A stretch of 64,000 nt of DNA from contig OZ024742.1 in NCBI GenBank assembly GCA_964016885.1, positions 243,226,001 through 243,290,000 of the forward strand, read 5' to 3'. The position numbers and the translations under genes were made by a program. This document shows positions 10,245 through 50,580 of this stretch, piece by piece (position 1 is the first letter of the stretch; each line of letters begins with the position of its first letter). Source of the stretch: Eledone cirrhosa. Lineage: Eukaryota. The notes under the pieces are model-generated. The model saw only the letters and a list, made by a program, of their open reading frames with translations, did not search any database and was not told where the DNA came from.

Positions 10245-10548
10245 AAAAAATGATGAAATCGAAAATGCAACTGGAGTCTTATTTTAAAAAATATATATAT
10301 ATTTATCTGGTTCCTTTACCGGTTTTTCACATCTGATGTGAGAAAAACCACAGACCCTCCATCTCAACTCTACTTTTGAAAAGCAGAAGAACTGCGAAAC
10401 CGGTAAAGGAACCAAAATAAATATATATATTTTTTTTTTAAATAAGACTCCAGTTGCATTTTCGATTTCATCTTTATTTCTTTATACTTTCACTCGTGTA
10501 GGACACCTCGGTTATTTTTCATTTTGTAAAAAAAACCTCACTTTCTAA
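10245..10548. mobile_element. TA-flanked foldback repeat (family also at 14308-14520 and about 41935-42090)
   Basis: 10252-10325 is the reverse complement of about 10396-10472; homologous sequence elsewhere in the window. Confidence 0.8.
10373..10409 (+). ncRNA. Minimal hammerhead motif, U3:A8 core variant
   Basis: ctt-TTGAAAA-gcag aagaa ctgc-GAAA-ccgg-TA-aag. Confidence 0.65.
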
Positions 10549-10568
10549 TATATATATATATATATATA

Positions 10569-11062
10569 AAGGCCAGTTACAAAAAAGATAGATGCCATGA
10601 CAGGCCTTGACTATTGGGGTCGACTAGAAAAGCTCAACCTTTATTCTCTCCAACGTCACCGTGAGCGCTGCATTATCTGCATGATGTAGAAAATAGTCCA
10701 TCAGCATTGCCCAATGATGTTGTGCCCCGTGCTATCCACCCACCACAAAAATCACACTCGGATCTCATAACAGCAATACGGCACAATTAATTCACCTCAA
10801 TTGGCCCCGCTCTCTTTAACATTACACCAAAACACATTAAAACTGAAACAAACCCCATAAAGTTCAAATAGTCTTCAGACAAATTCCTTCAAGAAATCCT
10901 GGATAAACCTCCTACACCCGGATATGTCTCCGTAAACAATAACTCTCTACTTAAGTGGGCCATGGTGTCCAAATCCTGATGTAAAAGACTTCGCCAGATG
11001 GTACTATAAAGTTAGACATGGCCTGGGCCAATACTGGCCGAAACCTATCAAACCATTCAAAC
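10569..11062 (+). mobile_element. CR1-type LINE 3' end fragment
   Basis: Translates to TKKIDAMTGLDYWGRLEKLNLYSLQRHRER, the CR1 ORF2 C-terminal motif, with stops; short repeat tail before (TA)n. Confidence 0.8.
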
Positions 11063-11202
11063 ATATATATATATATATATATATATATATATATATATAT
11101 ATATATATATATATATATATATATATATATATATATATAAAAGATGTAAAATAAGAAAATTTAAAAAAAATTTAAAAAATTAACTTACTTACTAAAATTT
11201 TC

Positions 11203-11284
11203 ACTCCAACTAATTAGTTTCTGCAATGGGATATAGACAGTTACGTAATATAACTGTCGAGAATTCATTGCGTCATCAGGGAGT
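11203..11284 (-). ncRNA. Type I hammerhead ribozyme motif (monomer 1)
   Basis: Minus strand: actcc-CTGATGA-cgcaatg...cattgca-GAAA-ctaattag (palindrome)-TT-ggagt. Confidence 0.8.
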
Positions 11285-11742
11285 CTATTCTCAGCTAAGT
11301 CTCCAGGCAATGCGCGGACACTGGGGACTCATATAAAAATAATAATAATTCGGTAGATGGAACAGCTAGCGGGGACTGGATTGCATGCACTGAAAAGCTC
11401 GCTGTCTCTGGTCAAATGGCAGATTCTAAAGAATCAATCACGTGACGCTGAGGCTAGTCGGAAGGAGTGGGATGGTAAGATGACAGAAGCCTACTACCAC
11501 ACCAATAAATTAGTAGTGGTTTGGACAGGTTTGCTCAACAAATAAATAATTTGGAGATAAATATAGACAATTTAGTATATCTACTAACATATGCGTATAG
11601 ATGTACGCTAATGCTAGCAAATACATAAGTTATGTCATAGTACCTAGGTGGTTCAATGCAGGAGGATGCAGAACAATAATATAAAAGACGTAAAATAAGA
11701 AAATTTTTAAAAAATTAAAAAAATTAACTTACTAAAATTTTC

Positions 11743-11824
11743 ACTCCAACTAATTAGTTTCTGCAATGGGATATAGACAGTTACGTAATATAACTGTCGA
11801 GAATTCATTGCGTCATCAGGGAGT
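11743..11824 (-). ncRNA. Type I hammerhead ribozyme motif (monomer 2)
   Basis: Identical motif exactly 540 bp from the first. Confidence 0.8.
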
Positions 11825-12026
11825 CTATTCTCAGCTAAGTCTCCAGGCAATGCGCGGACACTGGGGACTCATATAAAAATAATAATAATTCGGTAGATGG
11901 AACAGCTAGCGGGGACTGGATTCCATGCACTGAAAAGCTCGCTGTCTCTGGTCAAATGGCAGATTCTAAAGAATCAATCACGTGACGCTGAGGCTAGAGA
12001 CTTAGCTGAGACTTAGCTGAGAATAG

Positions 12027-46794: not shown

Positions 46795-47684
46795 CATATA
46801 TGTGTGTTTCTGTGTGCCTGCGTCTATATCTGTGTTTCTAGGTGTGTATGTGTATCTCTGTTCTTGGGCGTGTATTTGTGTGTGCATGTGCCTGGTTTTG
46901 TGTGTGTATGTCTATATGTGTGTGTGTCTAAGTACGTGTGTATTTGTCTATGTGTGTGTGTGCATGTGTCTGTGTTTGTATATGTATGTCTGTGTGTGTA
47001 TGTATGTGTATGTCTGTGTCTCTGAGTGCGTGTGTGTCCAAGTACGCGTGTCTTTCTCTGTGTGTGTGTATGTGTTCTTTCTGTGTGTGTGTGTATATGT
47101 CTGTTTGTGTGTGGATCTATATGAGTCGGTGTGTCTATTGGTGGGTGGCTGCCTGTCTGTATATGCGCGCGTGTGTTTGTGTGTGTGTGTGTGTGTGTGT
47201 GTGTGTGTGTGTGTGTGTGTGTGTGTGTGTGTGTGTGTGTGTGTGTGTGTGTGTGTGTGTGTGTGTGTGTCTGTGTCTCTGTCTGTGTATGCGCGCGTGT
47301 GTATGAGTGTGTGTGTGTGTGCGTGAGTCTGTGTATGCGTATGTGTGTGTGTGCGTGTGTGTGTAAAACATGTAATTTATAAATATATACATAAAGGTGG
47401 GTCGCATTACCGGTAAAGTAGCTGATAAAATACCTTGCGGTGTTTGGTTACGTCATTTTATGTCTTTAAGTTCAACTACAGCCCAGGTTCATGCTGGCTT
47501 TAAATCTTTAGAGATCGATAAAATATTTACCGGGGTCGTAGTAATCGATAGTAGAGTAAGAAGGCGGTTCCCAAGTATGGCCACAGTCCAACGACAGAAA
47601 CCAATAAAAGAATATAGATATGGATGTATAAACACATACATACATATACATACATACATACATACATACATACATACATACACA

Positions 47685-48302
47685 TTAAAGGCCGGGCCGG
47701 GCATGTTAAAACTGCATACATACATACATACATACATACATACATACATACATACATACATACATACATACGTACATACTTTCTTATATACATAGATACA
47801 CATTAAAAGCCGGGCATGTTAAAACTGCATATAAACTACATACATACACACACACATACACACATATACACACACATACATACATACACATGAAAAGACC
47901 GGGCATGTTAAAGTTGCATACATACATACATACATGCATACATACATACATACATACATACATACATACATACATACACACACATACACACTAAAGGCCG
48001 GCCATGTTAAAGCTGCATATAAACTTCATACATACACACCCACATCCACATATACACACATACATATGCAAAGGCCGGGCATGTTAAAATTGCATACGTA
48101 CATACGTCCATACATACATACATACATACATACATACATACATACATACATACATACATACATACATACACACACATATTCATACACTCATGCATACACA
48201 TACATATACACGCATACATATATACTCGCATACACATACACATACAGACATCCACGCATACACACATACACATGTAAAGGCCGGGCATGTTAAACCTGCA
48301 TA
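47685..48302. repeat. Degenerate tandem repeat: aaaggccgggcatgttaaa.ctgcata x6 separated by (TACA)n
   Basis: Motif at about 47699, 47812, 47901, 48000, 48077 and 48283. Confidence 0.85.
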
Positions 48303-48314
48303 CAATACAATGTA

Positions 48315-48380
48315 CGCGCGTGCGCAGCCTCAAACATAAATATATAAATGTTAAACGCACCACACTCTCGTCACTCTCGG
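48315..48380 (+). promoter_or_regulatory. Candidate Pol II core promoter
   Basis: NRF1-type site (reverse complement TGCGCACGCGCG, 48315-48326), TATATAAA at 48341-48348, Inr-like TCACTC at 48371, CpG-rich patch, 1.25 kb upstream of the FABP-like ATG. Confidence 0.45.
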
Positions 48381-49618
48381 CGCGGCTTTTTGCCTTGTAC
48401 GTACTTTGCTGTCACTTAAACTGTTTTTCAACTTAAGCAGCCACATCAGTATAAAAGTATTATTAATATATATGAATTAGCACATATATATATAGAGAGA
48501 CAAATAGATATTGTATATAATATATAGACTATTATATATACTAAAAAGAAAAGAAACGCTGTATTCATAAACGGATTTAAAGAAAACCAAATAAAATATA
48601 AATAAAAGTTAAGAATACATATATACATATATATATACATATATATATATATTTATATATATATATATATAGATAGATATATATATATATATATGCATAT
48701 ATAAACATATATATGTATTTATGTATATGTATATATATATACAATCATATATAAATAATTACTAAATATTATATAAGTGAGTGTATATAAACACACCGAC
48801 ATACATATATACACGTGTGTTTGTGTATGGGTGTATATATATATAGTATAATATATATTTATTTATATATTCATATATTTATATACATACATATGCCGGT
48901 TGATAAATAAGCAAGGGGTAAAGGAAGTTAGTCCTCCACTAATCTTTGACAGCAGGAGCAGCAACAGCAGCAGCAGTAACAACAACAATATTAACTACAA
49001 CAGCAGCGAGTGGCGGCGAGTAACTAATAGTTTTAACAACAGCAACAGCAACAACGACAACGACAACAACAACAACAACAGCTGAGGCAGCAGTAACATT
49101 AAGCAAGTAGTAACAGAGACAGTATTTAGAAAGAAAGAAAAAGAGTTTAACAGTAGTAATAACAGCAACAACAACAGCAACAACAACAGCAACAACAACA
49201 GCAACAGCAACAGTGTTAACCAACAGTAAATATAATCATTTAGGTACAGCAACAGCAACAGCAACAGCAACAGCAGCAGCAGCAGCAGAAGAAGAAGAAG
49301 AAGAAGAAGAAGAAGAAGAAGAAGAAGAAGAAGAAGAAGAAGAAGAAGAAGAAGAAGAAGAAGAAAGCTAAGCAGCAGTTTTTACGGCGTTGGCGGAGTG
49401 AGAGAGAGAGAGGAACAATAGCGAGTTCATTTGTTATCTTTTATTATTATTATTATTACTATTATTATTATTTTTGTTGTTGTTTTGTTTTTCTGTTGTC
49501 AAACGACGAGAAACTCAAGAAACTCAGTCGGTCTAAAGGTTTTATCCCTGCTGCCGGGACGCGCCTGATAAAAAAATATTAACAAAACAACACAGCTTTT
49601 CACCAACTAGAAACGACC

Positions 49619-49694
49619 ATGTCCCTTAACGGTTTCATTGGTAAATGGCAGGAGCAGACTAAGGAAGGGTTTGATAGCCTCATCTCAGCCATAG
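49619..49694 (+). CDS. First coding exon of a fatty-acid-binding-protein (FABP/iLBP) family gene
   Basis: gaccATG Kozak context; MSLNGFIGKWQEQTKEGFDSLISAI-G fits the FABP N-terminus F.G.W.....e.FD.....lG; phase-1 donor G|GTGAGT at the conserved first-intron position. Confidence 0.8.
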
Positions 49695-50400
49695 GTGAGT
49701 CAAAAATCATGTTAAAATATTTCATTCTTTGAATTTTTTTCGTTGTTTTGTGGGAATTTTTTTTTTCTTTTGAGTGTTTTTGATGTGTGTGTGGGTTCTT
49801 TTTTTTTTTTCAATATATTTTGTGTCGTGGTGTTCTTACTGATGATGATGGTGATGATGATGAGGATGATGATAATGATGATGGTGATGGGTGTATTCTT
49901 TCTTTTATTTACATTTTTTTTTGCTTTCCCGTTTCTTTATAGAATTTCTTTTACTTATTCATTCTCTCCCTCTCTATCTTTATCTTCTTCCATCACACAC
50001 TCTCTTTCTCTTCTGTTCTCTCTCTCTCTCTCTCTCTCTCTCTCTCTCTCTCTCTCTCTCTCTCTCTCTTCTCTATCTATCTATCTATCTATCTATCTAT
50101 CGATCTATCTCTCTGTATATACATATCTGTATCTGTATAATGTGGATGGAGCACTCAATACATGTTATAAAGTATATGATATATTTAAACCAAATTTCTT
50201 TTCTCGTTGCACGAATGTCATGCCACTACGATTATATATATATATAATCTTAGCTACCATTATACACAACTATATATATATATATATATATATATATATA
50301 TATATATATATATATATATATATATATATATATATATATATATATATATATATATATATATATATATATATATACATTTATATATTATATATATATATTA

Positions 50401-50580
50401 GTAAAAAGGAAAAGAAAATGCTGACAAATTTTTCCCAGTGAAAAATAGTTTAATTAGGAATAAGTATAAATTAGTAATAAGTATTAGTTAGTGTTAGTAA
50501 TAAGTATTAGTTAGTATTCAGTTTTAGTTTTAAGTTTTTACCGGTTGCGCATTTCTTATGCTTTTCAAAAATAATTTTGA
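50401..50580. repeat. TA-flanked repeat; inverted copy at 61039-61170
   Basis: Reverse-complement identity over about 130 bp; contains a U3:A8-type HHR-like motif (50535-50572, -) with GCAA for GAAA. Confidence 0.8.

Follow-up and report, generated by a model that had tools for sequence, protein, structure and literature searches.

A 64,000-nucleotide stretch of the Eledone cirrhosa genome (GenBank assembly GCA_964016885.1, contig OZ024742.1, positions 243,226,001 to 243,290,000 of the forward strand; hereafter the window) contains six hammerhead ribozyme motifs in which the C3:G8 pair of the standard CUGANGA core is replaced by U3:A8, giving the core UUGANAA. An earlier note, made from the letters of this stretch, had pointed to these six motifs. 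All are present and their exact parts were confirmed; the note did not list the defects that four of them carry, and it missed their context, namely several Penelope-like retrotransposons (PLEs), present in very many copies, whose terminal repeats (pLTRs) contain the motifs. The motifs and their hosts are as follows.

14448-14485, minus strand: intact minimal type I hammerhead motif of family A, cctt-TTGAAAA-gcagaagaactgc-GAAA-ccgg-TA-aagg, with the U3:A8 core at 14481-14475, a predicted cut after A17 (14452) and the stem III palindrome ACCGGU; the host is a 5'-truncated PLE pLTR at about 14302-14521.
10373-10409, plus strand: family A motif of the CTACTT subtype, core at 10376-10382, stem I of only 3 bp; the host is a pLTR fragment at 10335-10554, paired with a truncated partner in inverted orientation at about 10228-10325 (minus strand).
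42022-42059, minus strand: motif of an older family A subtype with core TTGATAA, in which 10.1-11.1 is U.U and stem II is weak; from these features, likely inactive.
50535-50572, minus strand: motif of A', a PLE family of its own; the core is UUGAAAA, stems I and II have covaried, the ACCGGU palindrome is retained, and GCAA replaces GAAA (A13C).
41714-41807, plus strand: intact type I hammerhead motif of family B, subfamily B1, acccc-TTGAAAA-54 nt-GAAA-5-bp stem III-GTC-ggggt, with the core at 41719-41725, a long stem II and a predicted cut after C17 (41802).
40794-40887, minus strand: inverted copy from the same B1 insertion, with U16.1 changed to C; likely inactive, judging from this change.
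40694-41826: the family B insertion itself, an inverted 5'-truncated pLTR followed by a pLTR, without coding sequence.

Sequence and mapping show that the 40794 and 41714 motifs are the inverted ends of this single insertion; a short repeat, which has a target-site duplication, breaks it up at about 41380-41570. The type I three-stem anatomy (core positions 3-9, 12-15.1, 16.1 and 17) is complete at 14448 and 41714 and in the family norms, and incomplete at 40794, 42022 and 50535. Of these elements the window contains nothing beyond truncated pLTR stubs and a single 64-bp piece that matches the 3' region of family A; its copies are probably inert. Further stubs of B or B-related elements, cut inside the hammerhead and retaining only its 3' half, lie at 14071-14308, 45030-45117, 52679-52878 and 57137-57233, often as perfect hairpin inversions. 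A structural scan detected four motifs in the window and one in ten shuffles taken together, and the best 150 of 316 matches of an Rfam scan contained no hammerhead family, only microsatellite-driven microRNA matches and two tRNA matches. In contigs from three sequencing runs, possibly of the assembly's own sample, that cover 10335-10425, no change reaching 3% was seen at position 3 or 8 of the core.

Elsewhere in the genome the carriers are found with their coding sequence. Family B forms tandem units, each about 3,543 bp long, whose intact frame of 786 amino acids (aa) bears reverse transcriptase (RT) and GIY-YIG endonuclease motifs (loci L121 and L122), and its hammerhead lies at the junction between pLTR and open reading frame (ORF). 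Family A (locus L133) consists of an inverted 5' pLTR, a pLTR, a 410-aa ORF1, a 775-aa RT-endonuclease and a further pLTR. The family A protein matched the Pfam domains RVT_1 (1.3e-6, just under the cut-off) and GIY-YIG (4.4e-6); the family B protein had no Pfam match, its RT and GIY-YIG motifs align with those of A, and its Atlas neighbours carry HTH_animal, GIY-YIG and RVT_1. The two families, which had been described as unrelated, are indeed far apart, at 23% identity over 225 aa of RT, and they are both PLEs, hence distant families of one kind of element. From their motifs, we take A to be Neptune-like and B to be Nematis-like. Both show the hallmarks of PLEs, namely tandem or inverted pLTRs, 5' truncation, an optional tail and (TA)n targets, and in each family the 3' ends fall mostly at two points. 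PMC8557442 describes how pLTRs, inversions and tails are arranged in PLEs, and the C-x4-C-x2-C linker of family A is as given there.

To establish the norm at the two exchanged positions, motifs were counted across the 3.0-Gb genome with patterns that left positions 3, 7 and 8 open; because these patterns need exact matches, the totals are lower bounds, weighted to young copies. Family A yielded 11,439 matches, of which 11,327 (99.0%) carry U3:A8; the exceptions are 66 that are not U3 and 46 that are not A8, with zero overlap. Family B yielded 2,772 matches, 2,562 (92.4%) with U3:A8. Its 200 matches without U3 had C3 in 98 and A8 in all of the 100 listed, and the 12 without A8 include four U3.G8 and one C3:G8. 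Reversed control patterns for A and B gave 0 matches. A Watson-Crick pair at 3-8 is thus the norm in A and B, and is absent from one subfamily, B2; G12-A13-A14-A15.1 is found in A and B and not in family A'. UUGANAA is therefore the consensus of both families, as proposed, and the case that the earlier note named as its own refutation, a CUGANGA consensus from which these copies had decayed, is excluded: C3:G8 occurs in 0 of 11,439 family A and 1 of 2,772 family B matches. The high copy numbers reflect amplification from a few masters rather than selection acting on every single copy. A sample of 600 kb of unselected DNA contained four credible U3:A8, two C3.A8 and nine C3:G8 motifs; two further U3:A8 matches, of six, proved to be minisatellite and were discounted.

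The same core occurs in a third family, C, outside the window (L234-L263, for example L248:900-1500). Its unit of 591 bp has no coding sequence, is repeated in short arrays, both tandem and inverted, and contains one U3:A8 hammerhead with a 10-nt palindromic stem III; 6,021 matches to its pattern were counted, with U3:A8 in 99 of the 100 listed. By its structure it looks like a retrozyme-type non-autonomous element. For annotation this means that a CUGANGA search would, as predicted, overlook at least 19,800 pattern-matching copies of families A, B and C.

Comparison of family B subfamilies provides a view of the motif over longer times. N7 is A in B1, to which the window copies belong, G in B3 and T in B4, and the pLTRs of these subfamilies differ by 12-26%. 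A sister family, B', lies 34-43% away from B in pLTR sequence; of those of its copies that retain a 5' core, 33 of 43 carry U3:A8, the sample having been deliberately enriched for G8 copies, and 30 of 30 unselected B' copies lack the 5' core. Among nine chosen B and B' copies, 95.8% of cells pair, compared with 30-56% in slid controls, and three stem II pairs have changed on both sides. The G10.1-C11.1 pair is present in the main A subtype and in all nine of these copies, and is G.U or U.U in older A subtypes. Covariation in the stems, together with the drift of N7 across B subfamilies, supports long-term selection on the fold. The earlier note had argued for selection on function from A/T variation at N7; N7 does vary across the B subfamilies, but the argument fails for family A, because N7=T (TTGATAA) is a minority allele, carried by 2 of the 16 copies listed for the subtype at 42022.

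U3:A8 hammerheads in PLEs have precedents. Cervera & De la Pena 2014 (PMC4209133) reported U3-A8 covariation among about 1,300 minimal hammerhead ribozymes (min-HHRs) of Schistosoma mansoni PLEs, with low activity in vitro, and the supplementary alignment contains both UUGAUAA and UUGAAAA; Perreault 2011 (PMC3088659) describes natural U3:A8 hammerheads, stated to be active in vitro, in which both sides of the 3-8 Watson-Crick pair have changed in the same compensatory way. The core is consequently not new, since it has been published in this kind of element. Our literature search returned no paper on hammerhead A13C or C3U/G8A, which supplement file 1 of PMC4209133 and Figs S6-S7 of PMC3088659 may list. 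Everything but the A13C family and the C3.A8 subfamily was found in print, some supplements and three key papers lying outside the search; neither is named in section 8 of Perreault 2011 (PMC3088659).

The Eledone motifs resemble the min-HHRs of the S. mansoni PLE Cercyon, as far as PMC4209133 describes them, in being type I, in their pLTR location, in U3-A8 with a variable N7, in a palindromic stem III and in occurring mostly as solo or inverted copies. Cercyon has an extra unpaired base between 9 and 10.1, whereas in Eledone A and B G10.1 directly follows A9; stem II of family A is 4 bp long and there is a palindromic insert of 4 nt, family B has 5 bp in stem III and 54 nt in the stem II region, and Eledone copy numbers are about 10-fold higher. 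The reduced palindromic helix III through which PLE min-HHRs dimerize is found in family A (ACCGGU) but not in family B, whose full stem III and predicted monomeric fold recall the fungal and protist PLE hammerheads with large helix III (PMC4209133); unlike these, family B is an animal, endonuclease-bearing element with a U3:A8 core. The PAc hammerhead of the Anolis PLE Poseidon (PMC11167929) likewise lies at the pLTR-ORF junction, and its copies likewise end at two downstream points (tail). In contrast with the Eledone motifs, which have U3:A8 and are known from sequence, PAc has C3:G8 and was assayed; according to the portion of that report available, it cuts only with protein and is dispensable for insertion in vitro.

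Considering these features together, we think it probable that these U3:A8 hammerhead motifs are self-cutting RNAs, likely slow or conditional ones, acting in the long tandem transcripts of their PLEs. Read-through transcripts of tandem elements would fold the motifs. Those of family A are predicted to cut only as dimers through the ACCGGU palindrome (cofolding 14443-14490 with a second copy of itself gives a double hammerhead at -22.5 kcal/mol), and those of family B, with a full stem III, are predicted to fold as monomers. Slow or conditional cutting may suffice to keep the motif over long times and be dispensable for each insertion, and purifying selection would then act on the fold in the master lineages. 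Insertion as such probably does not depend on cleavage, because the RNA from which copies derive extends past the cut site and because lineages with mismatched or altered cores have been amplified.

A number of observations weigh against this reading. All copies examined (29/29 in A and 41/41 in B) run 10-300 nt beyond H17 and were therefore made from uncut RNA; they mostly stop at two points, about 80 and 150 nt past H17 in A and about 20 and 100 nt in B. Folding-energy z-scores for seven sequences were not significant (-1.22 to +0.54), the 41714 copy, whose minimum free energy fold is a three-way junction, reaching only -1.22. Stem II is weakened in older A subtypes, the B/B' covariation reflects few independent changes, and AT-biased decay would likewise turn C into T and G into A. 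In a complete double-mutant scan of one hammerhead, as reported in the available text of PMC9901934, only the C:G to G:C swap rescued activity and the other double mutants of the region were low, so that U3:A8 may be a weak core. Two amplified lineages, B2 and A', count on the same side. The argument for selection is thus weaker than the earlier note claimed, with two of six window copies intact, two B copies from one insertion, N7=T a minority, a C3.A8 subfamily amplified and 70 copies continuing past the cut site.

Subfamily B2 (loci L135-L161) carries the C3.A8 mismatch in about 200 pattern matches. Within-subfamily divergence is 4.3% in B1, 3.1% in B2, 0.6% in B3 and 1.2% in B4, and a B'-rooted tree, built with the core masked and up to eight copies per subfamily after 19 of 141 rows had been dropped as truncated or divergent, places B2 between B1 and B3/B4, with low basal supports. 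The mismatch was not kept, since the younger B3 and B4 carry U3:A8. B2 may be a side branch, or an intermediate followed by reversal, and T to C beside the C-run may recur. In B2 the register might also be shifted, so as to pair C3 with G7. B5 comprises two insertions only, one with C3 and one with U3. A second C3.A8 insertion, in another subtype, was observed at locus L379.

The 50535 copy had been listed as a relative of the 14448 motif. UUGAAAA and ACCGGU are indeed common to both, and the copy belongs to a separate PLE family: GCAA is present in 12 of 12 of its full-core relatives, hence this is not a lone decayed copy. Stem I is UUUU/AAAA in A' and CCUU/AAGG in A, stem II GCAU/AUGC in A' and GCAG/CUGC in A, and U3:A8 is kept despite A13C. 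The 600 kb of unselected DNA contains four A' copies, equal to the number of GAAA-type A copies. One A' copy is preceded by its own RT-endonuclease sequence, with one frame break and 47-49% protein identity to A. A partial A' copy lies near 61039 (plus strand) in the window, and further A' loci are L404, L132, L151, L337, L357 and L377. It is conceivable, though we consider it doubtful, that the A' motif remains able to cleave in dimeric form, possibly needing the RT-endonuclease of its element, even though its core departs from the standard at two places at once, U3:A8 and C13. In that case A', together with B2 and its place in the tree between older and younger U3:A8 subfamilies, would show a ribozyme core passing through mismatched intermediates inside a transposon lineage.

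The strongest rival explanation, which we judge unlikely but worth serious attention, is that the motifs are catalytically dead, or nearly dead, hammerhead descendants kept as a structured signal, either an RT-endonuclease binding site or a landmark for internal RT initiation, with U3 and A8 fixed by drift and AT-biased mutation. The amplification of B2, the intact stems of A' and the extension of copies beyond the cut site all fit such a signal, as do, in the accessible parts of two reports, the normal insertion of catalytic mutants in vitro (PMC11167929) and the low activity of cores other than C:G and G:C in one scan (PMC9901934). However, U4, G5, A6, A9, GAAA, U16.1 and H17 are fixed while N7 is A, G or T and the loops diverge by 12-43% across B subfamilies, the younger B3 and B4 carry U3:A8, and U3:A8 is reported to be active (Perreault 2011, PMC3088659).

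That the motifs are instead fast, fully active ribozymes required in each round of transposition is very improbable: the conservation of core and stems and the stable family B stem III, like that of fungal PLE hammerheads cleaving as monomers, would suit it, but lineages with a mismatch or A13C have been amplified, inserted copies come from uncut RNA, and dispensability has been published (PMC11167929, available text). That the window copies are decayed CUGANGA members or chance look-alikes, as the four defective copies and the nine canonical motifs of other families in 600 kb might suggest, is refuted by the near-absence of C3:G8 from A and B and by the empty reversed controls. The families offer a natural series (U3:A8, C3.A8, and U3:A8 with C13; monomer and dimer forms; intact young elements) suited to the question of whether PLE hammerheads must cut. 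The kinetics of 3-8 exchanges have reportedly been studied by Przybilski and Hammann in 2007.

The window has other features. A loose scan revealed six canonical CUGANGA minimal hammerhead motifs, belonging to other repeat families and having a palindromic stem III:

5388-5450, minus strand
36199-36264, minus strand
37621-37754, minus strand
38140-38196, plus strand
40035-40103, plus strand
45393-45448, minus strand

A 409-aa frame at 3185-4414 (minus strand) resembles what we take, from its motifs, to be a fragment of a Helitron replication protein. The segments at 6662-8666 and 9040-9813 (both plus strand) are presumably, again from motifs, fragments of long interspersed nuclear elements, in which frames for apurinic/apyrimidinic endonuclease and RT occur along with a piece of RT that is RTE-like. 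At 19075-19144 (minus strand) and 19211-19281 (plus strand), in inverted orientation, lie two tRNA-like matches whose scores exceed the Rfam gathering threshold. Homogeneous minisatellites, with units 95-98% identical, occupy 28816-30300 (37-bp unit) and 31527-32900 (36-bp unit).

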